From positions 1 through 64,000 of IMG/VR virus record IMGVR_UViG_3300032320_002688: a stretch of DNA of 64,000 nucleotides. One strand, given 5' to 3'. Under the pieces are notes generated by a model. That model was not told where the DNA came from. It did not search any database and saw only the letters and a list, made by a program, of their open reading frames with translations. Below are positions 3,105-56,551 of the stretch, piece by piece. A program made the position numbers and the translations under genes. Every line of letters begins with the position of its first letter. The stretch's first letter is position 1. Origin of the DNA: a virus (lineage: Duplodnaviria > Heunggongvirae > Uroviricota > Caudoviricetes).

Positions 3105-3317
3105 TTAGTTTATATATTCCATCATTAATTCATCCCCTCTACATATACTCTGTAATGTTCTAAACTTACGTTCATCATCTAATGGTTTAGCATTGTCATA
3201 GTTACTACTAAACATTACTTCACCACCAAATGCTAACCCGCTAAATACCTCTAGATTTGAATTCATTACTATAAATTCACTTCGTTTTTCTTTATTTTTT
3301 AATCCAAATAAGCTCAT
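3105..3317 (-). CDS. hypothetical protein
   Basis: 70-aa ORF. Confidence 0.35.
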   Translation of the reverse strand: MSLFGLKNKEKRSEFIVMNSNLEVFSGLAFGGEVMFSSNYDNAKPLDDERKFRTLQSICRGDELMMEYIN

Positions 3318-3318
3318 A

Positions 3319-3915
3319 CTATGAATTTACGACAGGTTTATAGGCCAACCAAGTAGCTATTATATATTTGTCATTTGAAATTGGAACTTCTCCTCTATGA
3401 ACAAATGGAAACGCACTTGGGAATATTAATAAACCACCTTTACGAGGTTTAATTTTACTTCGAGTGTATAAAAATGATGTTTCACCTCCATTATTAACAT
3501 CATTTAAATAAACAATCATTGAAAACGGCCTAATACAACTCTCAGGACCATCTACTTCAACATGCCAAGCATTATAATGCCCACTACCCTTCTTATATTT
3601 TTGTATTTGACATACTTCGTAGTAAGTGGGATTACCTAATATTCTCCTATCAGCATCATAAGTATAAGAATAAGGCATATTTGCTAAGTAACGATTTGAA
3701 AGGTGATCGTTTATCGTTTCATAAAACGAATTATCGACTATACCTCTCAAATCAACTTCAGTAGAATTTTTAACATCAAGATTTAATCCTGAGGCCATTT
3801 GTCCTACTTCTACGTTATTAGCTGCTTCTCGTTTGTCGAATAGATCAACCATTGAGTCGCAAAACTCATTTGTGAAAGCATTATTGCTATAATAAATAAA
3901 TCTATCTAAGTTCAT
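3319..3915 (-). CDS. prolyl-4-hydroxylase-type 2OG-Fe(II) oxygenase
   Basis: WHVEVDG (HxE/D) ... GGETSF ... distal His and basic residue (FVHRGEV...KYIIATW); typical P4H-like cupin layout. Confidence 0.65.
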   Translation of the reverse strand: MNLDRFIYYSNNAFTNEFCDSMVDLFDKREAANNVEVGQMASGLNLDVKNSTEVDLRGIVDNSFYETINDHLSNRYLANMPYSYTYDADRRILGNPTYYEVCQIQKYKKGSGHYNAWHVEVDGPESCIRPFSMIVYLNDVNNGGETSFLYTRSKIKPRKGGLLIFPSAFPFVHRGEVPISNDKYIIATWLAYKPVVNS

Positions 3916-4612: not shown

Positions 4613-4876
4613 TTATTTTATAACTTCAATTAATGAAAGGGCTACATTGTAAAATCCAAGACTATTATCTTGTAATAATGCTTTTTTACGTTTAACATCC
4701 ACAACTGTGAATATTTTACCAACTGTTTTCTTGTGATTAATTTTTACTTTAGTACCTACAGATAATTCGTACTTTACTTCTTGCGCCTTAGACGCGATTT
4801 CGTCATGAATAAGATCTCTTAATGTTCTTAATTCATCAATGCTGAAATTCTTTAACTGTGATTTTGTAATAATCAT
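4613..4876 (-). CDS. hypothetical protein
   Basis: 87 aa; shares an upstream leader sequence with the gene at 11632..12066. Confidence 0.45.
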   Translation of the reverse strand: MIITKSQLKNFSIDELRTLRDLIHDEIASKAQEVKYELSVGTKVKINHKKTVGKIFTVVDVKRKKALLQDNSLGFYNVALSLIEVIK

Positions 4877-4942
4877 AACCTTTAATTTTTAATTTTAATT
4901 TATATAAATCTACGACTGTTTTTTTACCCAACCAAATTTGGC

Positions 4943-5386
4943 TTAGGCGTTCATAACGAACGCCATTGAAGCCCAAGTTTTAGTATTTAATTTTTTCCAA
5001 ATATTCCAATCAATCATTTTACTGAAGGCTTGGTGCATATTTCCTACTGTTAAATTATCTAAAATACCCTTATCAATTGAGTACCATTTACCACCTTTAG
5101 TAGTTAAAACGTGGAACCAATGTTCAGAACCATTTTCATACTTTTTAGCAACTTCAACCACTGTTGTATGCTTAGATAAATAATAAGGTAATTCTTTAAC
5201 TGTACCTTCGAAATCGGTAATCATTTGGAAACCAGCTCTCGCCTTACCAGTCATACGAAACTTATATACTTCGTTTTCGTCTTTTAACAGGTTAGATACT
5301 GAAACTGAATTACCATTAATGCTGATGCTACCATAAAATACATCACCACCCATTCCATTGTCATTTACTTTAATCATGTTTTTCAT
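4943..5386 (-). CDS. hypothetical protein
   Basis: 147 aa; preceded by the conserved intergenic motif region. Confidence 0.5.
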   Translation of the reverse strand: MKNMIKVNDNGMGGDVFYGSISINGNSVSVSNLLKDENEVYKFRMTGKARAGFQMITDFEGTVKELPYYLSKHTTVVEVAKKYENGSEHWFHVLTTKGGKWYSIDKGILDNLTVGNMHQAFSKMIDWNIWKKLNTKTWASMAFVMNA

Positions 5387-5406
5387 ATTCTTTAATTTTT
5401 AATTTC

Positions 5407-5420
5407 CGTAAAATTACGAC
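5407..5420 (-). promoter_or_regulatory. near-palindromic motif CGTAA-AA-TTACG (site 1)
   Basis: cgtaaaattacgac; identical 14-mer at 12991..13004; both about 20-45 nt upstream of minus-strand start codons. Confidence 0.4.
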
Positions 5421-5588
5421 CAATTCTTCACATCTCCAAGCTCTCTGCACAATTTCTTTATTCTTCACATCTCTCGCATCCCTCAATCGTGCACCGTAAA
5501 TGTACGACGTGTATTTTAGGTAACCAACCAATTGCGCATAAGTCTTTAAAATTTGCGCAAATCTGCGCGAAAATGCGTATAGCCCGTT

Positions 5589-5610
5589 GAAAATCAACGA
5601 GCTATACATT
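5589..5610 (-). promoter_or_regulatory. conserved intergenic element (AAATCAACGnGCTATrCATT), site 1
   Basis: near-identical copy at 13062..13084; lies in an unusually GC-rich 270-bp intergenic region. Confidence 0.35.
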
Positions 5611-5657
5611 AAATCCGCGTATATATGTAGAGCGTTAGTAATTAACGCGTTATATTA

Positions 5658-5933
5658 TTACTCGGTTTCGTGCGACATATATTGTTCAAATTCATGCGCG
5701 GCTTTCGGATTAACATTTTTCATATGTTCAAGCGTTAATTCGTAACGGCCAACTTCTGTACTTTTAATAAACAATTCATCATGTAAATTATCAGCAGTTT
5801 GTTTTATTGTTACTACTTCTGTTCTCAATGTTGCCATTTGTTTTTGCTGTAAATAGCAAATTACAAGTAAGAATAAAGCGGCACCACTGGCAACTTGTTT
5901 TTGATTGGCTATAAGCCATTTAATCATTTTCAT
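5658..5933 (-). CDS. membrane-anchored hypothetical protein
   Basis: 91 aa with an N-terminal hydrophobic helix. Confidence 0.45.
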   Translation of the reverse strand: MKMIKWLIANQKQVASGAALFLLVICYLQQKQMATLRTEVVTIKQTADNLHDELFIKSTEVGRYELTLEHMKNVNPKAAHEFEQYMSHETE

Positions 5934-7413: not shown

Positions 7414-7431
7414 AATGTTAATTTAAAAAAT

Positions 7432-7454
7432 GGGCCCTGCTAAATACAGGACCC
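7432..7454 (-). terminator. rho-independent terminator-like hairpin
   Basis: GGGTCCTG-TATTTAG-CAGGGCCC on the minus strand followed by TTTTTT (7425..7430). Confidence 0.55.
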
Positions 7455-7476
7455 ATGGCAGAGTAACGCAACCTAA

Positions 7477-7713
7477 TTAGGCAGCAAAGAACTCGTTGTT
7501 CTTAATACGACGACGAGTCAAGTTGTACATTGCATTAGCAACGATTTGGTTAACCTTTCTTTCACCAGCAAGAATGTAATAAACCATTCTTTCAGTGTAA
7601 CCGGTTTCATTTGAGATGCGTGTAACATCACCAGAGCGCTTACGCGCTTTAAAGAAAGCTAATTTTGCGGTGCGGTTTAAATAATTCGCACGAACGTTTG
7701 TTTGATAACTCAT
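7477..7713 (-). CDS. small DNA-binding (HTH-like) protein
   Basis: 78 aa; DVTRISNETGYTERMVYYILAG helix-turn-helix-like segment; basic. Confidence 0.4.
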   Translation of the reverse strand: MSYQTNVRANYLNRTAKLAFFKARKRSGDVTRISNETGYTERMVYYILAGERKVNQIVANAMYNLTRRRIKNNEFFAA

Positions 7714-7787
7714 AACTGTGTTTTTAATAAATTAAATTTTTAACAGGAGCAAAGATACGACTGTATCTTAAGGTAACCAAACTTACT

Positions 7788-8471
7788 TTAAAAATATTTT
7801 GAGAAAAGTCTATAATCTTTTTCGTATATAGCCATGACACGTTGAATTTGTTCTGTTGTTAATGTCTCTTCAACGGTTTTCTTGAGTTCGAGTGGTGTAG
7901 AATTTTCTTTAGGAAATGGTTTAGGGCTCCATTCGCCATAAGTAAATTTCTTAGTTAATTCGGGCCACGCTTCAACTATACCCTTAATGTTATAAAAATG
8001 CAAATAATCAGGTATAATACCATCGGCCGTAGCACAATAAGTCCATTGTGGGTGAAATACATAATCTAAATCGTAAAATTGCCTCCAATAATCTTCAACA
8101 GATAATTCATCCGCGTTATGTTTTACTTTTTGTTCCAGCAATGTAAGTGTTGTTTCTAAATTATTTAGGTACTGATGTGTGCCTGGTCTATTTTCTTCTG
8201 GGTTCCATTCTTGGCGTTCTAATATACCAGTATTCCATTGTAGATACCACCATGCTGAAACAAAACGTTCAACTGGTTCTCTAACTATAGCCATGCAATA
8301 ATGAGTACGAGTAAAATCGTCTCCATTCCACAATATGTCTTTAAGTAATCTGTGGTCATGAACTCTATATTGTCTTCCATTTGGCCACTCATAAACTAAT
8401 GCGGCGTGAATTGATTCTGAGGCGTTTTTAGGAATGGCTAATGCGAATGCATCACAATGATCAAATCTCAT
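7788..8471 (-). CDS. sulfotransferase-family protein
   Basis: IPKNASESI (5'-PSB-like) and VREPVERFVSAWWY (3'-PB motif RxPxxRxxS). Confidence 0.6.
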   Translation of the reverse strand: MRFDHCDAFALAIPKNASESIHAALVYEWPNGRQYRVHDHRLLKDILWNGDDFTRTHYCMAIVREPVERFVSAWWYLQWNTGILERQEWNPEENRPGTHQYLNNLETTLTLLEQKVKHNADELSVEDYWRQFYDLDYVFHPQWTYCATADGIIPDYLHFYNIKGIVEAWPELTKKFTYGEWSPKPFPKENSTPLELKKTVEETLTTEQIQRVMAIYEKDYRLFSKYF

Positions 8472-8901: not shown

Positions 8902-9296
8902 AGTTTACCCTCTTCTCTCATTTGCTCTCTAATTTTAGTAGCTGATATTTCTTTTACTTCAGTTGGTGGTTCATGTTCAATAATATCGTATCCAACACCA
9001 CGTCCAAAATTAACTGAATCAATATCAGGTATAATCATTACTCTAACTCTACCTTCATCTATAAGATCAGCTAGTTCTTTATGTAAATTAGACATTACTT
9101 CAATAGAGTACCATGGATTTTTTTCATCGGGTTCTATATCGCGAATACAGATTAATACGTTTTTGTCTTCATTTAATCGTTGATCTATAAGCCAACGATG
9201 TCCTGGATGCCAGGGTTGCCAGCGACCAATAAACATTGAGTATTGTTTACCCTCAATCTTTAACTTGGGATCTGCTGTTGCGTGGTAAATTGCCAT
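8898..9296 (-). CDS. HxGH nucleotidyltransferase (cytidylyl/adenylyltransferase superfamily)
   Basis: FIGRWQPWHPGHRWL (HxGH) and C-terminal ISATKIRE (ISxT-IR motif). Confidence 0.6.
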   Translation of the reverse strand: MAIYHATADPKLKIEGKQYSMFIGRWQPWHPGHRWLIDQRLNEDKNVLICIRDIEPDEKNPWYSIEVMSNLHKELADLIDEGRVRVMIIPDIDSVNFGRGVGYDIIEHEPPTEVKEISATKIREQMREEGKL

Positions 9297-9750
9297 AACT
9301 AGATAATTGTGTTAATAGTTTGTAGTAACAATCTGTTAGTGTCTCGGTAGTGTCCATATCAATATAATTAGAAACAGGAGGTTCATAATCAGATACGAAA
9401 TAAGTTTCACGTCCTCTTTCCACAGAAGTATGGACATAAATTTCAACAAGATTGTTTTGCATTTCAATTTTAAATTCATCTCTAAGATCTTTATACGGAG
9501 CCACTAGAGCAACTACCACATGACAACCTTGGTAGTGGAGGAATTTAGCTATGTCTTGAGCACGCTTGATATTTTCAACTCTTCCCTCTTTTCCGTAATT
9601 AACATTCTTGAAAATATCTCTTAATTGGTCGCCATCAATAAACGCTGTTTTAACGTCTTGAGTTTGTAAATAACCGAGTAATTCTTTACCTAAAGTTGTT
9701 TTACCATGACCTGGTTGACCAGTAAACCAATATATCATACTTTTATTCAT
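9253..9750 (-). CDS. cysC: adenylylsulfate (APS) kinase
   Basis: MIYWFTGQPGHGKTT, FIDGDQLRDIF, RVENIKRAQDIAKF...VVVALVAPYKDLRDE align with CysC WFTGLSGSGKST / LDGDNVRHGL / RKENIRRVGEVA; start probably at an internal Met (track ORF extends to 9792). Confidence 0.75.
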   Translation of the reverse strand: MNKSMIYWFTGQPGHGKTTLGKELLGYLQTQDVKTAFIDGDQLRDIFKNVNYGKEGRVENIKRAQDIAKFLHYQGCHVVVALVAPYKDLRDEFKIEMQNNLVEIYVHTSVERGRETYFVSDYEPPVSNYIDMDTTETLTDCYYKLLTQLSSYGNLPRNSRSQVKD

Positions 9751-10123
9751 TTGAAGATATAGTTTTATTACAACCATATCTTTGTTTAACATCTTTTAAA
9801 TAAGCTATATCTATTTTTTTATAGCCTGTTTCTTCTTTTTCCAACCAATAACTACATTGTTTAACATATCGAATATAGTGTTCTAATTGTTCCATCACCT
9901 GTTTAGGGCGAGGATGTTTAATATTAAACTTATATTCTGCTAATAAACATGGTTGAAGAGAATTAAGGAGATCAGTAATCTCCTTTTTTCTCAATTCTTT
10001 AATGTCTACTTTGTTTCCAAAAACTGCTTCTAAATAAGTGGGGTCAAAATTCTTCTCCTTAAGCTTGTCTGATTTGTCAAGCTTGTTGAATAATTTCTTC
10101 GTTATATCGTTTATGTGATTCAA
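9743..10123 (-). CDS. hypothetical protein
   Basis: 126-aa ORF. Confidence 0.45.
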   Translation of the reverse strand: MNHINDITKKLFNKLDKSDKLKEKNFDPTYLEAVFGNKVDIKELRKKEITDLLNSLQPCLLAEYKFNIKHPRPKQVMEQLEHYIRYVKQCSYWLEKEETGYKKIDIAYLKDVKQRYGCNKTISSNE

Positions 10124-10136
10124 TACCCCAAGTCAT

Positions 10137-10409
10137 TTATTTTTTCTTTTGTGAAGAAGCGGGTTTTTTAGCTGCTGGTTTTGCTGCTGGTTTTTTAGTA
10201 GCTGGTTTTTTAGCTGGTGTAGGTTTTGCTTTAATTACCTCAGCAGTAGCAGGAGCAGATGTTTCATATCCTACTTCATGTGGGTAAGGGCATTTGTCTT
10301 CGTCAGCATAAATACCTTTCTTTTCAGCCTTGGCTTTCTGAACATTCTTAACTAAATAAGCTACAGTAAAAATAGCAATAGCAAGAATCAAAATTGTAAT
10401 CAATTGCAT
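10137..10409 (-). CDS. membrane-anchored protein with Lys/Ala/Pro-rich tandem repeats
   Basis: N-terminal TM helix; C-terminal KKPATKKPAAKPAAKKPA repeats; repetitive DNA gctgctggtttt/agctggtttttt. Confidence 0.5.
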   Translation of the reverse strand: MQLITILILAIAIFTVAYLVKNVQKAKAEKKGIYADEDKCPYPHEVGYETSAPATAEVIKAKPTPAKKPATKKPAAKPAAKKPASSQKKK

Positions 10410-10644: not shown

Positions 10645-10929
10645 CTAATTTAATGTTCCAAATCTTTTAGCTAAAAATGGTTTCCAATTCTTTAGAATAG
10701 CAGTTACATAACTTAATTTAGGAGGAATTGTATTATTGATTAATAATTTCATAATCATTTCCTTCATATAAGAACGAGGCTCAATGTGGAAGTATTTATC
10801 TTCCCCAGCAGGAACCCATCGTTCAATTAATTCATCTATAGTTGATTCTATTTCGGGAGTAATATTCATACGAAAATAAATATGCCCGGTGTAGAAACAC
10901 CAGGCATTTAAAATTAAAGGTATGAACAA
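10645..10929 (-). CDS. hypothetical protein
   Basis: 94-aa ORF. Confidence 0.4.
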   Translation of the reverse strand: MFIPLILNAWCFYTGHIYFRMNITPEIESTIDELIERWVPAGEDKYFHIEPRSYMKEMIMKLLINNTIPPKLSYVTAILKNWKPFLAKRFGTLN

Positions 10930-12066: not shown

Positions 12067-12093
12067 AACCTTAATTTTTAATTTAAATAAAGA

Positions 12094-12128
12094 TACGAAG
12101 TGAGGGTTGGGTATCCAACCCTCTTCGT
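12094..12128 (-). terminator. strong rho-independent terminator hairpin
   Basis: ACGAAGTGAGGGTTGG-GTA-TCCAACCCTCTTCGT, about 15-bp stem, then T-rich tract on the minus strand. Confidence 0.6.
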
Positions 12129-12952: not shown

Positions 12953-12990
12953 AACATTTATTTTTTAATTTTTATACCTTAACTGGCAAG

Positions 12991-13004
12991 CGTAAAATTA
13001 CGAC
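12991..13004 (-). promoter_or_regulatory. near-palindromic motif CGTAA-AA-TTACG (site 2)
   Basis: identical 14-mer to 5407..5420, upstream of the DUF932-like gene. Confidence 0.4.
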
Positions 13005-13061
13005 AGCACTCTGAGGTAGCCAAGCTTCCCTCGAGTACTTTCAAAGACTTTTATAGAACGC

Positions 13062-13084
13062 GCGAAATCAACGCGCTATGTATT
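13062..13084 (-). promoter_or_regulatory. conserved intergenic element, site 2
   Basis: gcgaaatcaacgcgctatgtatt versus gaaaatcaacgagctatacatt at 5589..5610. Confidence 0.35.
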
Positions 13085-13089
13085 AAAAA

Positions 13090-14034
13090 TTATGCATATC
13101 CATATGTAATCATGTCATCTCTGTACACATCTTCAATAAGACCACGGTGATCTTCGAGTATTGATCCGAACTGTTCATGAATTTTAATTTTTTCTTCATT
13201 ATAACTCTTAATAAATGAGTCATATGTTGGATATTTAGCTTGAAATTCTAGGTCTGGATTTAAACCTGGTTGTATGAATTGTTTTAATTCCCATTCATGT
13301 TCGTAAGGCATAGTTTTAATAGAATCCATATTACTTTTCTCAATAAAAATAGTTAAGGGAGAAGGATCTAGATTAGGAAAGGCATTTTTAGTAACATCTA
13401 TTCCTCCCCATTTACTTAATTCATCTTTAAAATCATCCATCCATACATCCATTGTTTCAAAAGGTAAAATTCTTAAAGTATATGGACGTGGGGTTTTTAG
13501 GGATAAAAAATTAACTTGAGGCCATGCATGAATAGGTATGCTACATAAATTAACATTATCCCATCCTTTAGATTTAATAATATGTAAATTGGTAATAAGT
13601 AAGTGGAGTTGTTCTTCACTACTATGTCTATCATTTACAAACCAAGAATCAGTATAAAAACTTTGATAAGGATTTCTGGAAACAGGAGTTATTTGTGGGC
13701 GTTTAAATCTTTTGTGAAGTAAAGTTTCATAGGCAAATGATTTAAATCGATCAAATGGATTTCTAACCATAGTAAAGAAAAAATAATCATGAAAATCAGG
13801 AATATGCTTATAAATACTTACTAAGGGTTCATGTCTGTTTGTTGAAAACGAAACATCACCATTTAATTTCTGCTTTGCTGATGGGTGAAGGGGGCATAAA
13901 TCTATGTTCCATAAAAGATTTACATTACTAGAATGAGGAAGGGAAGAAAATGACCTTATTAAAAATTCGGTCATTGAACTAGATCCTGCTTTAGGAACAT
14001 CTATGAATACAGTTTTTATTGCAGAAATAATCAT
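13090..14034 (-). CDS. sulfotransferase-family protein
   Basis: IDVPKAGSSSM (PAPS 5'-phosphosulfate-binding-like PKxGSS) and MVRNPFDRFKSFAYE (RxPxxRxxS 3'-PB motif). Confidence 0.65.
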   Translation of the reverse strand: MIISAIKTVFIDVPKAGSSSMTEFLIRSFSSLPHSSNVNLLWNIDLCPLHPSAKQKLNGDVSFSTNRHEPLVSIYKHIPDFHDYFFFTMVRNPFDRFKSFAYETLLHKRFKRPQITPVSRNPYQSFYTDSWFVNDRHSSEEQLHLLITNLHIIKSKGWDNVNLCSIPIHAWPQVNFLSLKTPRPYTLRILPFETMDVWMDDFKDELSKWGGIDVTKNAFPNLDPSPLTIFIEKSNMDSIKTMPYEHEWELKQFIQPGLNPDLEFQAKYPTYDSFIKSYNEEKIKIHEQFGSILEDHRGLIEDVYRDDMITYGYA

Positions 14035-14035
14035 A

Positions 14036-14665
14036 CTATAAATAATTTATAAATTCTTCGCCGTTAGATTTTTCATCTATAAGGCCTAATTGTTTTAAAT
14101 GCTCACGATAATGTTCATCCAACTCCCAATCAACCTGAGCTGTTTTAGGTTGGTCAACATAATCTTCAATTGATAATATTTGTTTATTACTATAAACGTC
14201 ACCAACAAATAAAAAGTAACAATTGTAGCAATATAAGTCTAAATTTTCACGTTTCCAATTTTTCTTATTACTATCTTTAAAGTTAAGTAATAATGGAACT
14301 CGATAATCAGTTACTCGTTGTTCATTAAACCCACATTTAGAACAACATTCAGGTAATATTGCCTCTTGTATTAATCGACTTTTAAGTTTATTTACACTAT
14401 AGGATTCAATATACAATTCACCACTTAATATTTGTTGTAATGCTGGTTCCTTGCCTTTATTAGACATAAACTTATTAATACCCCTACCAGCTTGGTTCTT
14501 ATGTAATTCAAATAATGACTTACCTGATGTTTCATCCATCAATATCTTAGCAAACTTTTTATAGTGCTGATATGAGCAATTCAAATAACGAGCTGCTGAG
14601 CGATTACTTTTGGTAACACGCATTGCTCGTAATATATCTTCTTTGCTGATTGGTTTAGGTAACAT
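14036..14665 (-). CDS. putative DNA-binding protein with C-terminal zinc ribbon
   Basis: N-terminal HTH-like ILRAMRVTKSNRSAARYL; CCSKCG ... CYNCY. Confidence 0.4.
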   Translation of the reverse strand: MLPKPISKEDILRAMRVTKSNRSAARYLNCSYQHYKKFAKILMDETSGKSLFELHKNQAGRGINKFMSNKGKEPALQQILSGELYIESYSVNKLKSRLIQEAILPECCSKCGFNEQRVTDYRVPLLLNFKDSNKKNWKRENLDLYCYNCYFLFVGDVYSNKQILSIEDYVDQPKTAQVDWELDEHYREHLKQLGLIDEKSNGEEFINYL

Positions 14666-30067: not shown

Positions 30068-30105
30068 ATAAGTAAATTTACGAAATTTTATTTAGATAAC
30101 CAAAG

Positions 30106-30914: not shown

Positions 30915-30935
30915 AACTTAATAATTTTTTAATTT

Positions 30936-31022
30936 GCGGAGAGACAGGGATTCGAACCCCAGATACCCTTTCAAGTATTTCGGTTTTCAAGACCGACGCA
31001 TTCAACCGCTCTGCCATCTCTC
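30936..31022 (-). tRNA. tRNA-Ser (anticodon UGA), type II with long variable arm
   Basis: reverse complement GGAGAGATGGCAGAGCGGTTGAATGCGTCGGTCTTGAAAACCGA...GGGGTTCGAATCCCTGTCTCTCCG; 7-bp acceptor stem; anticodon loop CTTGAAA; closely resembles E. coli tRNA-Ser(UGA). Confidence 0.85.
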
Positions 31023-31067
31023 CGTCGTGAATTACTTCACTGTAACTGAATCAGCCTTAACAGTTGA

Positions 31068-31196
31068 ATCAGCAACTACTGCTGTTGTATCAGTTGATAC
31101 TGCAGTTGAATCAATTTTTACTTCAGTTGAAGCACCATTACCACCACATGCTACTAAAGTAGTTGCCAATGCTAATGCGAATACGATTTTTTTCAT
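31068..31196 (-). CDS. tiny putative lipoprotein (about 42 aa, not in ORF track)
   Basis: MKKIVFALALATTLVACGGNGAST... signal peptide plus LVAC lipobox; coordinates approximate. Confidence 0.3.
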
Positions 31197-31254
31197 AATT
31201 TGTTTTTTTAGTTAATTATAACTTATTTGTGGATTATAAATATACGATAATAAT

Positions 31255-31998
31255 TTAGGGTATCCAAGTTTTCTTTGAAGAAAGTATTCTTTCTCCAGAA
31301 AGATAATAGGGGTTATTTTCAGTATTAGTAGTGTATCCAAATAGGATGTCACGTGTAATTTCTTTTGGTGATAGTTTTAATTTAACAACGTTACGTGGAT
31401 GGAAATTATGATAGAAGTATCTATTCCCACTATACACGGGTTGTGTTTTCATATCGTCCCAAGCTAATCGAATAGGATTTTCTTCCCCAGCATATACACC
31501 CACTCTGTATGTAGCGTAGTATGATGTTCGTGCATCATCAGCAGTTAACATAGATATAAAATTAATATTTTTGTTATTTGAGGATAATGAATGAGCAAAA
31601 TCAGAAACTACTGTTACATAACATTTATGTTTATCTGTAAATTCTTCTATTACTGAAAGAGTATCCTGATGGAAATTAATATCTTCATGTTGTAACCATA
31701 TAGCTACTTTTCTATCAAATAAATCAAATTTATCCCAAGCTACCTTTACAATTTTATTATTTCTGAATCCTAATACTTCAATATACCAATCGATATAGAA
31801 TTTCATTCCTAATTCATTCCAGTTATTTCCCCACATAGGAGTACTTTCTACTAATTCGTAATTACTACCTACTTTTTCGTAGTATCGAATTAAAAATTCA
31901 CCCCAAATATCAGAATCATCTGTTCTAATTTCAACAAAAGGACCAGCAAAGTAGTCATGGTATTTAAATGTAACTTGAGGCCAATTAATTTGAGACAT
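31255..31998 (-). CDS. hypothetical protein
   Basis: 247 aa, 14-nt overlap with the carbamoyltransferase gene. Confidence 0.5.
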   Translation of the reverse strand: MSQINWPQVTFKYHDYFAGPFVEIRTDDSDIWGEFLIRYYEKVGSNYELVESTPMWGNNWNELGMKFYIDWYIEVLGFRNNKIVKVAWDKFDLFDRKVAIWLQHEDINFHQDTLSVIEEFTDKHKCYVTVVSDFAHSLSSNNKNINFISMLTADDARTSYYATYRVGVYAGEENPIRLAWDDMKTQPVYSGNRYFYHNFHPRNVVKLKLSPKEITRDILFGYTTNTENNPYYLSGERILSSKKTWIP

Positions 31999-34309: not shown

Positions 34310-35956
34310 TTACATTCCTAAATTCATACCACCACCATTGTCATTTTTTTCATCTTTTTTCTCGAACACAACTGATTCTGTTGTTAAAATTGTTCCTGCT
34401 ACGGACGCTGCATTTTCGAGAGCAATACGTGTCACTTTTACAGGATCAAGTAAACCTTCATTTAACGCGTCGGCAACAGTATCTGTTTTAACATTAAATG
34501 TTGTAAAGTTGTTGCCTTCTGGATCTTGCTCAAATACGATATGAAGAATTTCATACCAGTTATCTTTACCAGCATTATCCATAATTTTCTTAAATGGTGC
34601 ATAACAAGCTTGTTTTACAATCTTGATACCCGAAATGATATCGGCGTTAGTGTCACCTATTTTTCCAAAGATATTATTAAACGCTTTAATCAACGAAACA
34701 CCACCACCAGGAACAATACCTTCAGCTAATGCTGCTTTTGTTGCGAATAAAGCATCTTCAACTCTATCTTTCTTTTCTTTAATTTCAATTTCGCTATTTC
34801 CACCAACTGAAACGATAGCAACACCACCAATTAATTTACCTAAACGCTCTTGTAATTTTTCTTTTTCAAAGAACGATTGTGCTTTATCAATTTGTGATTT
34901 AATTTCTTCGGCACGTGTAGAAATTGCTTCTTCAGTACCACCACCATCAATTACAGTAGTTTTATCTTTATTAACATTAACTGTTCTTGCTTTACCAAGA
35001 TATTGAGTGTATTGAGCAACAGGAATTTTATCTAATTTTAATCCTTTTTCTTTACTAATAACTTGACCACCTGTTACAGTAGCTAAATCTTCAAGGGCCA
35101 TTGTTCTACGTTCGCCAAAATCAGGTGCTTTAACAGCAATAACTTTAACGATACCTCTTGCTTTGTTAACGATTAATGTAGCTAATGCTTCACCATCAAT
35201 ATCTTCCGCAACAATTAATAATGATTTATTTTCAGCGCTTACTTTTTGTAATACTGGAAGCAATTCAGCAGCTGTTGTAATTCTACCGTCAAAAATTAAT
35301 ACATAAGCATCATCAATGATAGCTGACATTGTATTATTATCGGTAACAAAATAAGGTGATTTGTAACCACGCTCAAACTGCATACCCTCAACTACTTCAA
35401 GAGATGTTTCGCCTGATTTACTTTCTTCAATTGCAACTACGCCTTCACGGCCTACTTTTTCAAGAGCAGTAGCAATTAAATTACCAATTTCTTCATCATT
35501 ATTACCTGAAATGGTTGCTACAGCTTTAATGTGTTTTTCATCACTGATATCGAGAGCAAGTTTTTTAAGTTCATCAACTACTAACTTTACTGCTTTATCA
35601 ATACCTTTCTTTACTTCTACTGGGTTAGAACCTTGACCTAACAATTTAAGTCCTTCTTCTACCATTGTAGTAGCAAGTAATGTTGATGTTGTTGTACCAT
35701 CACCAGCTTCATTTGCTGATTTAATACTTACTTGTTTTACAAGTTGAGCTCCTAAATCTTCTACTTGGTCCTCTAATTCAGAAAATGCTTTAGCAACTGT
35801 AACACCATCTTTTGTTACTTTAAGTTCACCACTTGCATCTTTAATTAAAACTGTTCTACCACCTGGACCTAAAGTGGAAGAAACACTGTTATTCAACTTT
35901 TGAATACCAGCGAGTAATTTATTTTTTAAATCAATTCCATACGATGTTTCTACCAT
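34310..35956 (-). CDS. groEL: chaperonin GroEL (Cpn60)
   Basis: 548 aa; ATP-binding GDGTTT; C-terminal GGGMNLGM; full-length colinear with Hsp60. Confidence 0.95.
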   Translation of the reverse strand: MVETSYGIDLKNKLLAGIQKLNNSVSSTLGPGGRTVLIKDASGELKVTKDGVTVAKAFSELEDQVEDLGAQLVKQVSIKSANEAGDGTTTSTLLATTMVEEGLKLLGQGSNPVEVKKGIDKAVKLVVDELKKLALDISDEKHIKAVATISGNNDEEIGNLIATALEKVGREGVVAIEESKSGETSLEVVEGMQFERGYKSPYFVTDNNTMSAIIDDAYVLIFDGRITTAAELLPVLQKVSAENKSLLIVAEDIDGEALATLIVNKARGIVKVIAVKAPDFGERRTMALEDLATVTGGQVISKEKGLKLDKIPVAQYTQYLGKARTVNVNKDKTTVIDGGGTEEAISTRAEEIKSQIDKAQSFFEKEKLQERLGKLIGGVAIVSVGGNSEIEIKEKKDRVEDALFATKAALAEGIVPGGGVSLIKAFNNIFGKIGDTNADIISGIKIVKQACYAPFKKIMDNAGKDNWYEILHIVFEQDPEGNNFTTFNVKTDTVADALNEGLLDPVKVTRIALENAASVAGTILTTESVVFEKKDEKNDNGGGMNLGM

Positions 35957-35960
35957 GTTA

Positions 35961-36248
35961 TTAGTTTTTAATAATTCCTAAAATATCATTCTCTTTACAA
36001 ATAAAATAATCTTGTCCTTCAACGCTAATTTTCATTGCGCCTAATTTTGGGATAAGTACTTTATCTCCTACTTTTAATTCTGTTTGTTTCCAAACGCCCA
36101 TATTCCAGTTAAAAGTATCGCTTACTGCAGCTACTTCACCGATTTCGGGTCTTTCTTTTCCCAAATCCGGGATAATAATGTTTCCTACCATCTGTTCTGT
36201 TTCTTCTACAGGGGTAAGGATAATGTGTCCATTTAAGGGTTGTATCAT
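35961..36248 (-). CDS. groES: co-chaperonin GroES (Cpn10)
   Basis: 95 aa, 4 nt upstream of groEL; ILGII C-terminal pattern and mobile-loop region. Confidence 0.85.
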   Translation of the reverse strand: MIQPLNGHIILTPVEETEQMVGNIIIPDLGKERPEIGEVAAVSDTFNWNMGVWKQTELKVGDKVLIPKLGAMKISVEGQDYFICKENDILGIIKN

Positions 36249-36294
36249 AATTTTTCGTTTTTTTAAATATAAGTAAAATAATTTAAATAACCAA

Positions 36295-36313: not shown

Positions 36314-36730
36314 TTACTTAATAGCCAACACTTTAGGTTTGGCTTGTTCCGCGAATGGAATAGAAATTAATAATAAACCATTATCCATTTGGGCATCACC
36401 ATTTTGAAGATCAAAACGCGATGAAATTTTATAACCTAGATTAAATGAACGACGAGCAATACCCTTATGGATATAGTTAGTTATGTCGATTTCATTTTCT
36501 CCATCTTTTTCATATGTAACTCGTAAGATATCTCCTTCGATGTTAATATTAACATCTTCTTTAGATAATCCAGTGCATGCAATTTCAAAATGCAAGCCTT
36601 CTTTTGTTTCGTAAATGTCTACGGGGTGTGAAATTTTGGTCTCCAGTGCTGGAGCGAAGAATGAGTCGTTGTTGAAGAAATTCTTGAACAAGACATCGAA
36701 TGGGTCTGTGTGTGTTTTCAATAGTGTCAT
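36314..36730 (-). CDS. small heat-shock protein (Hsp20/alpha-crystallin family)
   Basis: 138 aa; alpha-crystallin domain; C-terminal I-x-I-type ISIPF. Confidence 0.75.
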   Translation of the reverse strand: MTLLKTHTDPFDVLFKNFFNNDSFFAPALETKISHPVDIYETKEGLHFEIACTGLSKEDVNINIEGDILRVTYEKDGENEIDITNYIHKGIARRSFNLGYKISSRFDLQNGDAQMDNGLLLISIPFAEQAKPKVLAIK

Positions 36731-44176: not shown

Positions 44177-45016
44177 CTATACGTTTAAGGTTTTATTCCA
44201 AGCTGCAATATGTAATCTTGTAAGACCACGGAAACGATACTTCTTAGCCATTTCAAGACAGAATCTAGTGCGCTCTTCAAAATTAGAAGCATCATCTAAA
44301 CCTGGCATACAAACAACGTTTTTAAGCGGTATATTAAATGGTTCTACGAAGTCACGGAATAATTCCAATACATCGTCTTCAGTGCTAATAACGAACTTAA
44401 ATTGATAGTTTTTATGTAGTTTAATACGCTCAATCGCTTCTGGATTAATACGTTGTTTTTCTGTCATACCTGAATTAGCTAATTTAGGTGAACAGTTAAT
44501 TTGATCTAACATATTAAATAACTTAACATCTATCACTATTGTACCATTAGTTTCAATTTCATAGAATGGTTTAACATTATTAACGTCAAGATATCTTGAC
44601 ATCCAGTAATTAGTAAAATTAACAATTGCTTCTTGATGACCTTTAATTGTTGGTTCACCACCTGTCCAAATAATATGAACTAAACCATTTTTAATATCTT
44701 CATATACACCCTCTTCTTTCCAACGATTAATTAAATAATCAAAATCTTTATCTTCACCTCTCCACAACCATTGACTAGTACTATCACAAGTCCAGGTTGC
44801 TTTACCTTCTAATTCTAAATCACCTTTGAATATTTCACCATCTTCTAATGATGCTTCTTTCATTAACTGGTTAGTAAATGCTCTACTCATACCGCAGGTT
44901 AGGTTACAAATACCTAAACGAACGAAGTACGATGGGATACCAGATGATATACCTTCGCCTTGAATGCTATAAAAATCACTACTAATAAGTAGTTTATTTG
45001 AATCTATTTTACTCAT
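44177..45016 (-). CDS. queE: 7-carboxy-7-deazaguanine synthase (radical SAM), atypical Cys spacing
   Basis: FSIQGEGISSGIPSYFVRLGICNLTC, HIIWTGGEPT, YEIETNGT align with E. coli QueE; the third cluster Cys appears displaced to WTCDSTSQW (compare CDTKHTW). Confidence 0.75.
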   Translation of the reverse strand: MSKIDSNKLLISSDFYSIQGEGISSGIPSYFVRLGICNLTCGMSRAFTNQLMKEASLEDGEIFKGDLELEGKATWTCDSTSQWLWRGEDKDFDYLINRWKEEGVYEDIKNGLVHIIWTGGEPTIKGHQEAIVNFTNYWMSRYLDVNNVKPFYEIETNGTIVIDVKLFNMLDQINCSPKLANSGMTEKQRINPEAIERIKLHKNYQFKFVISTEDDVLELFRDFVEPFNIPLKNVVCMPGLDDASNFEERTRFCLEMAKKYRFRGLTRLHIAAWNKTLNV

Positions 45017-45875
45017 TTACTTGTGTTGTTTTATGTTCTGATAATACTTTTTCTACGTGTGATTTAGCTACTTCCCAACTTACAGGACCTGTTTCGTCAG
45101 CATATGCTACTGGGTCAGGACGTCCTAATTTGATAAATGCTTCAATACGCTCTACTGATGCTGCTGATTTATAATCACTAAACCATTCTTCGTATTGAAA
45201 ACCTAGGTTATCGTAAATTAATAATTTAATTGGTTTATAAGATGTATTTGTACGCTTATATACCTCATTAAAATCAAGACCTAAGATATCACAAGATCTT
45301 TGCCCGTCCTCTAAGATGTCAAATTTATTAACTTCAAGATATGGAGTATAATGGTATACTAATTCTGAATCCCAGTTACCAATCTTAAAGGCTTCCATGT
45401 CTGCATCTCTAAATTCTTGACGGCAGTCAGGATAAATTGCATGATCACCAGCATGGATACCCATTGCAATAGCAACATCTCTTTTTTCCAATTGACCATC
45501 ACCTAAATCTTTAGTTGCAATTGATAATGCTACTGCTTGAATCAATGATGAAAAAATTTTATTACGATTAGGCACAACTGTTTCTTTCATATTGTCTTGC
45601 TCGTAATGTCCTTCTGGAACATCATTACCCCCAGTTACTAAAGCAGAGTTTAATAATTGAGATAAACCATCTAGTTTGATAATTTGATGTGTTACAGGTT
45701 GATTGTTTTCTTTTAGATATTGTACTAATGATGTAGCACGTTCTAATTCTACTTTGTGTTTTTGACCATAGTCAAAACCTAATGCTGTTACTTCGTAGCC
45801 ATTGGCTAACAGGTGTAACAATAATGAACTTGAATCCATCCCACCTGACAAACTTAAAACTGCTTGTTTTTTCAT
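45009..45875 (-). CDS. queC: 7-cyano-7-deazaguanine synthase-like, no canonical Zn-Cys cluster
   Basis: AVLSLSGGMDSS PP-loop, FDYGQKH, YPDCRQEF align with QueC; C-terminal CxxC...CxxC zinc site not found; protein 288 aa versus about 230. Confidence 0.75.
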   Translation of the reverse strand: MKKQAVLSLSGGMDSSSLLLHLLANGYEVTALGFDYGQKHKVELERATSLVQYLKENNQPVTHQIIKLDGLSQLLNSALVTGGNDVPEGHYEQDNMKETVVPNRNKIFSSLIQAVALSIATKDLGDGQLEKRDVAIAMGIHAGDHAIYPDCRQEFRDADMEAFKIGNWDSELVYHYTPYLEVNKFDILEDGQRSCDILGLDFNEVYKRTNTSYKPIKLLIYDNLGFQYEEWFSDYKSAASVERIEAFIKLGRPDPVAYADETGPVSWEVAKSHVEKVLSEHKTTQVNE

Positions 45876-46867: not shown

Positions 46868-47084
46868 ACTTATGTAATTTTTTAGTTAATTTATCTATTT
46901 GAAGTTGACAAAACCATTTACCCATATTACCAGAGGCATTGTTATATTTTTCCTTCCATTCATTTATTTTTTTATGAATAGGAGCATTAGCTTTATTAAG
47001 TATATCAATGTCGTAATAGCTATTATTTTCTAACATTGGATCATTATTATCCTTCATATATAGCGCTGTTTCTTTCATTCTCAA
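46851..47084 (-). CDS. hypothetical protein
   Basis: 77-aa ORF. Confidence 0.35.
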   Translation of the reverse strand: MRMKETALYMKDNNDPMLENNSYYDIDILNKANAPIHKKINEWKEKYNNASGNMGKWFCQLQIDKLTKKLHKYESKS

Positions 47085-47514
47085 AAAATTCTACTTGTAC
47101 TATTTTAACTCTACCATTTGTTTCTTCTTGTACAAATGTATTTAGTTTTTCATAAATGAATTTAGCAAATTGTTCTGCACCAACAGGACCTTCTAATAAT
47201 CTAAGTTGAACAATACCTTTCTTATCCATTTCCTTAAATAATTCTACTTCAGGATCATCTGGTGCTATAACAGTAGTATGATCGAACATGTAGTCCATCC
47301 ATTGTTTAGCATTCATACCGTCAATGGTAGTTTTTGCTCGTTTCATTCCTCCAAAGTCCCAAACCCAATTTCTGTGGTCTAATTCTCCTTCAAATGTTAC
47401 TTTAAATTCAATGTCATATCCGTGTAGGAACTTACAATGTGTTCCCTCAGCAGCCCATTGACGAAAAACAGTACTAAAACCATTAAATAATTTTGTTGAT
47501 TGAAATTTACTCAT
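47047..47514 (-). CDS. queD: 6-carboxy-5,6,7,8-tetrahydropterin synthase-like
   Basis: EGTHCKFLHGYD corresponds to the QueD CxxxHGH region (here HGY); DFGGMK and FDHTT blocks. Confidence 0.65.
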   Translation of the reverse strand: MSKFQSTKLFNGFSTVFRQWAAEGTHCKFLHGYDIEFKVTFEGELDHRNWVWDFGGMKRAKTTIDGMNAKQWMDYMFDHTTVIAPDDPEVELFKEMDKKGIVQLRLLEGPVGAEQFAKFIYEKLNTFVQEETNGRVKIVQVEFFENERNSAIYEG

Positions 47515-48034: not shown

Positions 48035-48226
48035 CTATTTATTTGGCGTAAATTTAAGTATCTTTTCTGAGATAACCACCCTTCCCTTAGTATGTTTTGG
48101 TTCGTAAGGACAATGTCGACATCCATTACCGCAACATTGGCCGCGTCTAATGTGAGCGAGCGCTGTGAATATCACGCGCTCGCCTTCTATATAGTAATCA
48201 ACTTTATTTGTGAGTTCTTTACTCAT
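48035..48226 (-). CDS. Cys-rich mini-protein
   Basis: 63 aa; QCCGNGCRHCPY. Confidence 0.4.
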   Translation of the reverse strand: MSKELTNKVDYYIEGERVIFTALAHIRRGQCCGNGCRHCPYEPKHTKGRVVISEKILKFTPNK

Positions 48227-51803: not shown

Positions 51804-52892
51804 TTATTTGTATGATGTAAGATACGAAAAAGTATTTGATAACCAAAATTCTACATTGGGAATCGAGTTACCTAAGAAATCTTCGTTATACATCCTTAAG
51901 AAATCTGTTCTATTCATTTTGAAGGGAGAAGTTGAAATTAATTCCTCAAGTTCAGCAACTGCCTCTTCTGTCAACACTGGATTAGTTAAATCCATTAGTT
52001 GTCTATTAATATTAAGCTGATGTTTGAAATTAACTATATTACCATACAAGGCATGTTCATTAATTTTTTGTTCAGCGGTTTCCATTACATGTTTGAAAGT
52101 GTATTTTTCATCATTAACAAACTCAGGAAATAATTTTAATAGTTTTTTATCACCTAATCCTTTTACTCCTGGTAAGTTATCAGAATCATCCCCTGTTAAT
52201 ATTTTATAGTTAATAAAATTAGCAGCAGATACTTTATATTCATCCTTCACCATAGCAGGTGTATAGAATTTCTTCTTAATAGGAGAATAAACTGATACTT
52301 TAGGACTTACTAATTGTAAAAAGTCTTTATCAGCAGACATAATTACTACTTCACCTGGTAAGTGGGTAGCTAAATACCCGATAACGTCGTCTGCTTCTAT
52401 TTTATCAATGGCAACTAAATTAACAGGAAGTTGTTGTAAATAATCAATTAACCTAACAATTTGGTTTTCAATAGATTCAGATTCTTCTTCTTTGCTATTA
52501 AGTGTTTCCCAATGGGTAACTTTAATAAGTTTTCTATTTGCTTTGTATTCAGGATAAAGGTATTTTCTATTTGTAGTACTACCTGCTCCTTCAAAACATA
52601 AGATAACTCTTGTTGGTTTAATATGATTAATTGCAAAACCTATTGATTTTAAAAAACCAGTAAGTCCTCCTATATGATGCCCTTGATAATTAAGGTGCTG
52701 TATCATTGTAAAACACCTTAAAAAGGTATTCATAGAATCTATCAGAAGCACCTTGCTATTTAAATGCAAGGGCTCCTGTTTTGATTCTTTTATATTATCG
52801 AGTAAGGATTTAAAAAACGCTTTATTGCTCATTTGTTTCAAGTTCAGTTGGTTCGTTGTCAAATATGTCTCTGATATCTTCTTGCATTTCAT
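51804..52892 (-). CDS. 5'-3' exonuclease / flap endonuclease (T4 RNase H-like)
   Basis: VLLIDSMNTF, YKANRK, IEADDVIGYLA, SADKDFLQL, LTGDDSDNLPGVKGLG motifs of the FEN family. Confidence 0.8.
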   Translation of the reverse strand: MKCKKISETYLTTNQLNLKQMSNKAFFKSLLDNIKESKQEPLHLNSKVLLIDSMNTFLRCFTMIQHLNYQGHHIGGLTGFLKSIGFAINHIKPTRVILCFEGAGSTTNRKYLYPEYKANRKLIKVTHWETLNSKEEESESIENQIVRLIDYLQQLPVNLVAIDKIEADDVIGYLATHLPGEVVIMSADKDFLQLVSPKVSVYSPIKKKFYTPAMVKDEYKVSAANFINYKILTGDDSDNLPGVKGLGDKKLLKLFPEFVNDEKYTFKHVMETAEQKINEHALYGNIVNFKHQLNINRQLMDLTNPVLTEEAVAELEELISTSPFKMNRTDFLRMYNEDFLGNSIPNVEFWLSNTFSYLTSYK

Positions 52893-54737: not shown

Positions 54738-54817
54738 ATAACTTGTTTTATGTTTGCGTAAATATAAGATGGAAACTTGAGGTAACCAAATTTTTCTTGC
54801 CCAGAAAAGGTCTTAAT

Positions 54818-56499: not shown

Positions 56500-56551
56500 A
56501 ACCTTTTTTTATTGGAATTAAATATAAGACAATGTCTTTGTATTTCCAAAT

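Follow-up and report, generated by a model that had tools for sequence, protein, structure and literature searches.

The closest described counterparts of the elements considered here are the PeSL (promoter-early stem-loop) cassettes of T4-type phages, in which terminator and promoter elements lie between the stop codon of one gene and the ATG of the next, in ORFan-rich hyperplastic regions, and which mediate modular shuffling (Arbiol et al. 2010, PMC2839356; Comeau et al. 2014, PMC4122927). PeSLs recur many times in a genome, with a preference for small ORFan genes, and their recombination leads to indels or replacements between close relatives and to mini-circles. The present analysis concerns two intergenic gaps of a phage of the class Caudoviricetes, gap A (5387-5657) and gap B (12953-13089), in positions 1 to 64,000 of the IMG/VR record IMGVR_UViG_3300032320_002688; this stretch of 64,000 nucleotides (nt) is called the window, and all coordinates refer to it unless a related contig is named. 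Gap A had been singled out from the letters of the window because it shares two motifs with gap B. The evidence assembled below indicates that the two gaps are probably transcription-unit boundaries of a Bacteroidota phage, each combining terminator-like hairpins with a promoter of the host sigma-A type.

The signals expected in such a host are well described. The primary sigma factor of Bacteroidetes uses promoters with a -33 TTTG and a -7 TAnnTTTG element (PMC6847099, PMC7366714), which are found genome-wide in Flavobacterium psychrophilum (PMC9723704), and the G at position -5 is "nearly invariant" in the sigma-A promoters of Flavobacterium johnsoniae (PMC6847099). The median 5' untranslated region of F. 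psychrophilum is 24 nt (PMC9723704), a scarcity of Shine-Dalgarno sequences is the expectation for a Bacteroidota host (PMC6847099), and Bacteroidetes make use of canonical intrinsic terminators (PMC7366714).

A comparison of the cassettes of the window with PeSLs reveals similarities in layout and differences in sequence. In both, a stem-loop with a terminator or attenuator function is joined to a strong early promoter of host consensus (the activity of both elements is here predicted from sequence); both appear more than once in the ORFan-rich parts of large phages that encode T4-type replication proteins, and both are accompanied by indels, replaced genes and mosaic boundaries when close relatives are compared. 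In this phage, the T4-type replication genes encode gp32-like, RecA/UvsX-like and clamp loader proteins and a PolB that is 28-36% identical to gp43 of cyanomyoviruses. The two hairpin cassettes lie in the ORFan-rich first 16 kb, and 12 other promoter sites are present, so hairpin-free promoters are the commoner arrangement. However, the cassettes have no sequence homology to PeSLs, and their promoter is of the Bacteroidota -33/-7 type instead of the sigma-70 -35/-10 type. Additionally, the stem-loops lie upstream of the promoter and do not overlap it, and they are sequence-conserved palindromic units, which can form tandem arrays of 1-4, instead of GGGG/CCCC stems. By this comparison, the cassettes are classed as functional analogs of PeSLs and not as homologs.

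The motif architecture, the bias of strand and position, the hairpin potential, the conservation and the mosaic boundaries are direct observations. The first shared motif, the 14-mer CGTAAAATTACGAC, is present in two exact plus-strand copies (5407-5420 and 12991-13004), and a scan of the window finds a copy with two mismatches at 5495-5508. The second, motif 2 (AAATCAACGMGCTATRYATT), has two exact copies (5591-5610 and 13065-13084), whereas 0.05 are expected from shuffled sequences. As the original prediction stated, both gaps are non-coding and lie between minus-strand genes, to which all genes in the first 50 kb of the window belong, and the distance from the end of the 14-mer to the start codon (20 nt in gap A and 38 nt in gap B) agrees with the spacing that it gave. 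The description of the region as GC-rich was overstated: the GC content is 36.5% in gap A and 35.8% in gap B, compared with 31.9% in the window, which places them at the 92nd and 80th percentiles among segments of equal length and not among the outliers; most other intergenic gaps, with 11-30% GC, fall below both. The two motifs prove to be fragments of larger elements, in that the 14-mer lies within a 31-nt promoter motif with 14 copies and motif 2 makes up the 5' half of a hairpin.

A repeat search (family D1) placed the 14-mer inside a longer repeated motif, TTGG-N16-TCG-TAnnTTTA, of which the window contains 14 copies, including relaxed ones, all on the coding strand (14:0). On this (minus) strand, the 14-mer is read as GTCG-TAATTTTA-CG, that is, as a -7 box TAATTTTA flanked by conserved bases (G-TCG ... 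CG), and the fuller consensus of the 14 sites is (T)TTGG-tTAcC-N10-g-TCG-TAnnTTTA-c. The strict form TTGG-N16-TCGTAnnTT occurs nine times on the minus strand and never on the plus strand, compared with a mean of 0.017 in 300 dinucleotide shuffles, and a position weight matrix (PWM) of the promoter yields 13 minus-strand and no plus-strand matches in the window. The distance from TTG to TA is 20 nt in 13 of the 14 sites (TTGG, usually TTTGG, with a fixed N16 and TCG), and the core TAnnTTT is absent from only two of them (TATCTTAC and TAAATTCA). The last position of the -7 box is A in 12 sites, G in one and C in one. All 14 boxes are located upstream of genes and end 4-40 nt before the start codon, with the exception of that of P1, which ends 110 nt before the ATG at 5386. 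The three hairpins and 12 of the 14 promoters lie between genes rather than inside coding sequence, which favors the regulatory, non-coding role that had been proposed for both gaps.

Gap A contains two of these putative promoters on the minus strand. P1 (5497-5527) consists of TTGG at 5527-5524, N16, TCG and the -7 box TACATTTA at 5504-5497; it holds the two-mismatch copy of the 14-mer and is the ortholog of the single promoter of the relatives (compared with, among others, the related contigs L265 and L229). P2 (5409-5439) consists of TTGG at 5439-5436, N16, TCG and the box TAATTTTA at 5416-5409, which ends 22 nt before the ATG at 5386, and it holds the exact 14-mer at 5407-5420. The corresponding element of gap B, PB (12993-13023), precedes a DUF932 gene and consists of TTGG at 13023-13020, N16, TCG and the box TAATTTTA at 13000-12993, which ends 40 nt before the ATG at 12952; it holds the 14-mer at 12991-13004.

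The remaining copies, also on the minus strand, are distributed over the window. The copy TTGG-N16-TCG-TAAATTCA (3322-3352) overlaps the 3' end of the gene at 3319-3915, and its box ends 4 nt before the ATG at 3317. It is followed by TCG-TAGATTTA at 4905-4935 (28 nt before the ATG at 4876), TCG-TATCTTTG at 7750-7780 (36 nt before the ATG at 7713), TCG-TATCTTTA at 12088-12118 (21 nt before the ATG at 12066) and TCG-TAAATTTA at 30073-30103, 5 nt before the ATG at 30067 of a clamp-loader-like AAA+ gene. TCG-TATATTTA at 31237-31267 lies upstream of a small open reading frame (ORF) and a tRNA-Ser gene (30936-31023), and ACT-TATATTTA at 36264-36294 lies 15 nt before the GroES-GroEL genes. A weaker copy, GTGG..ACT-TAAATTTA, is present at 48049-48079 (17 nt before the ATG at 48031), and a copy with a 15-nt spacer, TCG-TATCTTAC, at 51817-51846 (22 nt before a DnaB-like helicase gene). 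Two copies of TCT-TATATTTA, at 54759-54789 and 56519-56549, precede a gp32-like gene (53934-54737) by 21 nt and the ATG at 56499 by 19 nt, respectively. The boxes at 3322-3352 and 30073-30103 leave only 4-5 nt to the start codon, so leaderless or near-leaderless mRNAs are predicted for these two. The genes behind the copies (gp32-like, DnaB-like helicase, clamp-loader-like, GroES/GroEL and many small ORFans) form a set consistent with early or middle transcription by the polymerase of the host.

The promoter signal is retained in related phages. Across 80 related viral contigs that carry homologs of the two downstream genes, TTTGG...TAnnTTTG or TTGG-N16-TCGTAnnTTTACG is found at the matching position. 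For the gene downstream of gap A (54 contigs), the signal at the same place is the canonical TTTGG...TAnnTTTG or TTGG-N16-TCGTATATTG (for example, in L052), and upstream of the DUF932 homologs (29 contigs, 44-89% amino acid identity) it is mostly (A/G)CTTGGCTnCC...TCGTAnATTTACG. The architecture of PB also precedes DUF932 homologs with 44-52% amino acid identity, and PB itself is nearly 100% conserved in L092. When only TTGG-N19-TAnnTT was anchored in the related loci, 324 distinct sites were obtained, and their free positions recover the T before TTGG, the TCG before TA and the box TAtaTTTA, with A (0.64) and G (0.20) at its last position. Flavobacterium phage immuto, with Flavobacterium sp. 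LMO8 as its host, carries the best cultured-phage relative of the DUF932 gene of the window (40% protein identity); this gene is preceded by TTGC-N16-TCG-TATATTTAGG, the A-ending box TATATTTA is present, and two neighbouring genes have a similar promoter signal. Since an A-ending, TCG-extended box precedes genes of this phage, the variant appears to be a phage promoter dialect used in a Flavobacterium system.

The DUF932 promoters of the relatives additionally contain a direct repeat around the -33 element with a spacing of approximately 17 nt (TGCGCAGGA twice in L074 and CTCCACAGG twice in L060, both at approximately 2900-2960 of the contig). The block AAAGTACTC..AGG.AGCTTGG (window 13005-13040) is conserved over phages with only approximately 45% protein identity. 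The repeat flanking the -33 element could be the site of a gene-specific regulator that overlaps the promoter.

The family thus resembles Bacteroidota sigma-A promoters in having TTTG(G) 20 nt upstream of a TAnnTTT box, in its short A-rich leaders without a Shine-Dalgarno sequence and in the position of the copies, on the coding strand just upstream of genes. It differs in the A that ends the box in place of G (12 of 14 sites), in the conserved TCG 5' of the box and in a -33 element that is far more conserved than reported for F. johnsoniae; recognition by sigma-A is putative. The sites are therefore best described as probable sigma-A-like variants, which share the TAnnTTT core and the -33 spacing and lack G-5, rather than as canonical members of the class. 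The phage-specific promoter of the original prediction would accordingly be of host type (Bacteroidota sigma-A-like) and is not demonstrably phage-specific.

Other features of the window point to the same kind of host. A Shine-Dalgarno-like 4-mer precedes only 4 of 101 genes, and the leaders are A-rich. Promoters of the E. coli sigma-70 type were considered as the signal and rejected, because such sites are rarer in the window than in shuffled sequences. Together with the promoter dialect and the relationship to phage immuto, these features indicate that the host is most likely a Flavobacterium-type bacterium. A megablast search with 2 kb around gap A found no close relative among deposited phages; at the protein level, distant relatives alone are present there, namely immuto (40% for DUF932) and PolB of the cyanomyovirus type (28-36%).

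Directly behind the stop codons that precede the promoters, the minus strand can fold into hairpins, and motif 2 (AATRYATAGCnCGTTGATTT on the coding strand) forms part of them. Hairpin A1 (type 1; 5628-5652, TAACGCGTTAATTACTAACGCTCTA) begins 6 nt past the stop codon of the gene at 5658-5933, has an inner stem GCGTTA/TAACGC and a loop ATTAC, and scores 39 bits with a PWM built from 22 units. Hairpin A2 (5577-5607, GTATAGC-T-CGTTGA-TTT-TCAACG-G-GCTATAC) has a 14-bp stem and a 3-nt loop and is followed by CGCAUUUUCG at 5567-5576; its 5' arm and loop are motif 2 (5591-5610). A small GC hairpin at 5555-5568 (GCGCA-GATT-TGCGC, then AAATTTT), read from the sequence, is missing from L092 through an 11-nt indel. 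In gap B, hairpin B (type 2; 13053-13079, ATAG-CGCG..TTGATTT..CGCG-CGTT-CTAT, with an inner stem GCGCG/CGCGC) begins 10 nt past the stop codon of the gene at 13090-14034, scores 17.9 bits and is followed by AAAAGUCUUUG without a U-tract. Its 5' arm is again motif 2 (13065-13084), which here pairs in another register and with a different 3' arm than in gap A. The second motif, which had been taken for a second promoter or operator element, would thus be the 5' arm of a stem-loop located after the upstream stop codon. A by-eye reading of motif 2 as a short-spacer or T4-type late promoter (TTGATT-N10-TATA, TATAAATA-like) was rejected because gap A has TATACGCA at that position and because pairing fits all copies.

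The predicted energies are -20.8 kcal/mol for A2, -6.4 to -10 kcal/mol for A1 and -8.6 kcal/mol for B. The 22-unit PWM detects just these three units in the window, all in the two flagged gaps, and nothing else scores above background. On the plus strand, the palindrome has a degenerate match at 5728-5752 (AAGCGTTAATTCGTAACGG, 9 bits), inside the gene at 5658-5933, which could be due to chance or be a decayed unit. In common with intrinsic terminators, A2 has a GC-containing 14-bp stem and a 3-nt loop just past the stop codon, with a U-run after it, which is weaker in the window (4 U after a 5-nt gap) than in relatives (5-8 U straight after the stem). A2 was not called on the minus strand in a simple terminator scan. 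Unlike intrinsic terminators, A1, B and most type-1 units have no U-tract, and their sequence is conserved far beyond the need of a terminator. A2 can thus be described as intrinsic-terminator-like, and of the units it is the one for which termination is most convincing. Two classic intrinsic terminators on the minus strand, at 7430-7456 and 10882-10907, have 11-bp GC-rich stems and T-runs and are unrelated in sequence to the palindrome family; the phage therefore appears to use ordinary terminators as well.

In related phages the hairpins form a family of palindromic repeats of approximately 25 nt with the consensus TAGCGCGTTAATTACTAACGCTCTA. The related contigs L092/L204 are collinear with the window at 72-86% nucleotide identity; the ortholog of gap A in L092 contains four tandem units, compared with two in the window, followed by one promoter, and A2 is identical at 36 of 36 nt. 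The sequence of A1 is found identically over 22-28 nt in L055/L092, L205, L206 and L207. Exact copies of the type-1 core were found in 5 viral contigs and, 74 times, in 70 stretches of metagenome sequence; 46 of the 74 have the flanks TAG...CTA. The A2 core has exact matches in 16 viral contigs, where it is followed by a run of T5-8, as also in L092, L229 and L234, and A2-type units of relatives are always promoter-proximal. In every inspected case (L092, L205, L206, L207, L240 and 46 metagenome matches), the order is a stop codon, 1-4 units with a period of 35 or approximately 50 nt, 20-49 nt, the promoter, an A-rich leader and the ATG. The density reaches 9 units in 8.9 kb (L205) and 9 in 14.7 kb (L207), compared with two hairpin cassettes in the 64 kb of the window, and in L207 single small genes are flanked on both sides by cassettes. 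A looser motif-2 pattern with 14 specified bases, searched on the viral contigs, returned mostly chance matches.

The aligned units retain their pairing. In 22 aligned units, 81.8% of the cells are paired, compared with 28-47% when the partner is slid, whereas covariation is marginal with respect to shuffles (26 of 500 for changes on both sides and 48 of 500 for the covariation score). Compensatory GC/AT changes occur at two pairs in a set of 75 units, and the outer stem of A2 is ATAGC/GCTAT in one group and ATAAC/GTTAT in another, which is also compensatory.

Signs of recombination are seen at the cassettes. The number of hairpins differs between close relatives (2, 3 or 4 units, with 2 in the window and 4 in L092). 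In the ortholog of gap B (L092/L055), the promoter and flanks are approximately 100% identical, whereas the 3' arm is swapped (6 differences in 15 nt) such that a type-1 hairpin (GCGTTA/TAACGC) replaces type 2; both types are present in the phage of the window and in L092, at different positions. A window-specific insert on the minus strand (5421-5493) lies between two copies of GTCGTAnnTTTACGG and contains the internal direct repeat GAGATGTGAAGAAT twice. This insertion of 88 nt, bounded by the duplicated -7 boxes (GTCGTAnnTTTACGG twice), generates the second promoter P2; it is missing from L092, L229, L237 and L265, each with one promoter, and has no homolog in any fetched locus. Cassette B is approximately 97% identical to that of the relatives, compared with 89% for the downstream DUF932 gene and 35-47% amino acid identity for the upstream sulfotransferase-like gene, and this drop in identity marks the cassette as a mosaic boundary. 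The sulfotransferase-like gene itself (13090-14034; compared with L092 1000-1958 and L250) is an allele that is hypervariable or has been swapped, with the cassette as its boundary, whereas the relatives are otherwise 77-89% identical. We infer that recombination caused these rearrangements. Among the functions first proposed for the motifs, the promoter is retained for the 14-mer, and recombination sites are backed indirectly, by the mosaic boundaries and the changes in copy number at the cassettes; no evidence points to a packaging site.

Initiation, termination and the sigma factor used are inferred from these features, in a mechanism that would operate as follows. Past the stop codon of the upstream gene, one or two stem-loops would end or attenuate incoming transcription, and they may also protect the 3' end of the upstream mRNA. 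A strong promoter, recognised by the primary sigma factor (of the Bacteroidota sigma-A type) of the host RNA polymerase, would then restart transcription of the downstream gene, with TTGG as the -33 element. Transcripts would start a few bases past the box and have A-rich 5' leaders of approximately 15-35 nt, without a Shine-Dalgarno sequence. In gap A, the 14-bp hairpin and its U-run would constitute an intrinsic terminator, and in gap B the same 5' arm would pair in its other register, with no U-run. Because they are repeated and conserved, the cassettes could also provide patches of homology, at which recombination would swap neighbouring genes and alter the number of hairpins and promoters.

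Several observations weigh against the reading of the gaps as terminator-like hairpins and a host sigma-A promoter. The host's nearly invariant G-5 is replaced by A in 12 of the 14 window sites, and the conserved TCG 5' of the -7 box is outside the published host consensus. A1, B and most type-1 and type-2 units have no U-tract (a CTATAAAAG tail is common), and perhaps not all of them terminate. The hairpin sequence is near-identical across phages with genes that are at most approximately 70% identical or cannot be aligned, and the 5' arm is kept even where the 3' arm differs, for which the function of a terminator alone is insufficient. Finally, in 75 oriented units the wobble pairs show no strand bias (41 G-U and 63 A-C); G-U wobble had been considered as evidence at the RNA level because the first 22 units hinted at it, and it was rejected when the larger set no longer showed it. 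Without an excess of G-U over A-C, a role at the RNA level and one at the DNA level are inseparable.

These properties of the hairpins would suit units that are primarily protein sites at the DNA level or mobile palindromes, such as an operator array, a target of a recombinase or endonuclease, or an element resembling repetitive extragenic palindromes or miniature inverted-repeat transposable elements, with termination secondary. Such a role deserves serious consideration, although it is on balance unlikely. It would accommodate the near-identity over 22-28 nt between contigs that otherwise share at most 70% nucleotide identity or none, the tandem arrays with a 35-nt period, the conservation of the 5' arm alone beside a variable 3' arm, the scarcity of U-tracts in type-1 units, the missing G-U bias of the sense strand and the exchange of hairpin types between positions in close relatives; an HNH endonuclease gene is also nearby (14036-14665). 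However, in the direction of transcription the units are always found between a stop codon, which they follow directly, and a promoter, where a terminator would be expected, and with 20 to 49 nt between the last unit and the -33 element they lack a fixed phasing with RNA polymerase. The U-tracts of A2-type units are those of textbook terminators, the analysis identified no candidate for a binding protein, and the palindrome is not amplified in bacteria: the hairpin 17-mer has 11 scattered single matches in 185,579 species genomes, which is the chance level and led to the rejection of a host-genome repeat. Likewise, no hairpin units were found in deposited phage genomes, and no paper in the searchable literature contains the palindrome. 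In another clade (L289-L303; for example, L290 at approximately 300-420), the 5' arm ATAACTC(G/A)TTGATTT is repeated two to three times in tandem around an A2-type terminator, in some cases without a matching 3' arm, and this conservation of a lone arm is not explained by hairpin function.

A more specific proposal, which we consider rather improbable, is that the palindromic units serve a clade of freshwater Bacteroidota phages as a dedicated element with sequence-specific recognition, bound by a phage-encoded protein such as a recombinase, an endonuclease, an anti-terminator or an RNA-binding factor. Recognition would account for the near-identity, including that of the 5' arm alone, for the 35-nt tandem arrays and for unit types that switch positions, and recognised units would drive gene shuffling cassette by cassette or toggle read-through during infection. 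Kingsford and colleagues reportedly found in 2007 that DNA uptake sequences of Neisseria and Haemophilus are inverted repeats that double as terminators at gene ends. The units of the window are similar in that a short specific sequence recurs as inverted repeats at gene ends and forms terminator-like hairpins. They differ in that they are phage-borne, show no evidence of an uptake or recognition system and are not amplified in the scanned bacterial genomes.

Terminator-like hairpins with a host-type promoter remain the preferred reading, and the departures in the promoter bear on which sigma factor would use it. Because the -7 box departs from the host consensus at G-5, a modified or alternative sigma factor is retained as a rival: the promoters may be real and yet be read by a phage-encoded or alternative sigma factor similar to those of the extracytoplasmic function (ECF) group, or by a host sigma-A that a phage factor has redirected. 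In T4, MotA and AsiA redirect the host sigma factor at middle promoters. The conserved CGT before the box and the 16-nt spacing recall the 'CGT' boxes of ECF -10 elements, and a CGT box was noted in the SM6/ECF motif of F. psychrophilum (PMC9723704). The A in place of G at -5 (in 64% of the 324 sites of relatives, besides the 12 of 14 in the window) and an information content above that of typical host promoters also agree with such a factor. Nevertheless, the -33 TTTG, the TA..TTT core and the spacing fit sigma-A and not the ECF -35 'AAC'; ECF promoters have AAC at -35 and CGT at -10, approximately 16-17 nt apart, whereas in the window CGT is present (in TCGTA) and the upstream TTTGG(T)TA has no conserved AAC. 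Moreover, more distant homologous phages have the canonical TAnnTTTG at the same position, and replication and early-type genes need expression before any phage sigma factor exists. Among the matches listed for the ORFs of the window, which is part of the genome, no sigma, AsiA, MotA or helix-turn-helix regulator domain was detected. A dedicated or redirected sigma factor is thus quite unlikely.

The original prediction also described the 14-mer as a near-palindrome, CGTAA-AA-TTACG (CGTAAAATTACG), suited to a dimeric binder, which would make it a symmetric operator for a dimeric phage regulator, with motif 2 as a second element. The arms CGTAA/TTACG are indeed inverted repeats, and the 14-mer is identical in the two gaps, with a third near-copy close by. 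However, copies with up to three mismatches barely exceed chance (13 found, 7.1 expected), and the pairing of the hairpins explains motif 2. The near-palindrome appears to be a by-product of the promoter because the conserved columns of the 14 copies are asymmetric (-33/-7), all 14 copies have the orientation of the coding strand and only approximately 5 of them have the 3' CG. Additionally, the protein at 7477-7713, named as a possible helix-turn-helix binder, has no such match in Pfam or PHROGs. A symmetric operator is therefore very improbable.

The possibility that gap A encodes a protein or a small structured non-coding RNA can practically be dismissed: an ATG-initiated ORF of 79 amino acids (5370-5609, minus strand) crosses most of the gap, and the minus-strand RNA folds better than 200 of 200 shuffles (z = -3.8), but the ORF has no Pfam or PHROG match, its start codon lies inside a hairpin arm, its frame is broken in close relatives by changes that are not multiples of three (the 11-nt indel and the 88-nt insertion), gap B has a stop at the equivalent position, the discrete hairpin units account for the excess structure, and no Rfam family is found in gap A even at E values up to 5, where only meaningless microRNA and snoRNA matches appear (at gathering thresholds, the only Rfam match in the window is the tRNA-Ser).

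Several other genes of the window were also noted. Two sulfotransferase-family genes and an adenylylsulfate (APS) kinase gene lie in the ORFan-rich region (7788-8471, 9253-9792 and 13090-14034), and a large block of sugar-nucleotide, epimerase, methyltransferase and glycosyltransferase genes extends over approximately 16.7-28 kb; these genes suggest a phage-encoded sulfated or glycosylated modification of some substrate. Genes for 7-deazaguanine (queuosine-precursor) synthesis are present, with QueC at 45009-45875, a PTPS/QueD-like gene at 47047-47514 and a GTP cyclohydrolase I gene within 16.7-43.9 kb. Such genes occur in phages that hypermodify guanine in their DNA. The phage has its own chaperones, GroEL (34310-35956), GroES (35961-36248) and HSP20 (36314-36730), and the promoter copy at 36264-36294 precedes GroES/GroEL. 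In the gap at 30915-31254, a small lipoprotein-like ORF (starting MKKIVFALALATTLVACGG...) contains internal 21-nt tandem repeats (31061-31134) and is followed by the tRNA-Ser(TGA) gene (30936-31023), both downstream of the promoter at 31237-31267; the program-made list of ORFs gives a spurious plus-strand ORF there instead. The gene at 10137-10409 contains tandem repeats with a period of 12-15 nt (10149-10230, TTTTTTAGCTGCTGG-like on the plus strand), which indicates a low-complexity, repeat-containing small protein.

The finding is real, regulatory and ordinary in kind, and what is new is the occurrence of PeSL-like cassettes with Bacteroidota signals, a known kind of element in a new group of phages. 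The strict conservation of the hairpin sequence, which seems to exceed the needs of termination and feeds both the DNA-level and the recognised-element explanations, is the only aspect behind which something new might lie. The promoter model TTTGG-N16-TCG-TAtaTTTA and the terminator-hairpin model are usable for a large group of uncultured freshwater phages, apparently with Flavobacterium-like hosts, and would help to delimit transcription units, recognise early genes and assign hosts with no more than the sequence. The PeSL type of mobile regulatory cassette has been described for T4-type phages of Proteobacteria, and the present data suggest that it reaches into a lineage with Bacteroidota signals. 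If so, mobile cassettes would be a more general route to the mosaicism of phage genomes.

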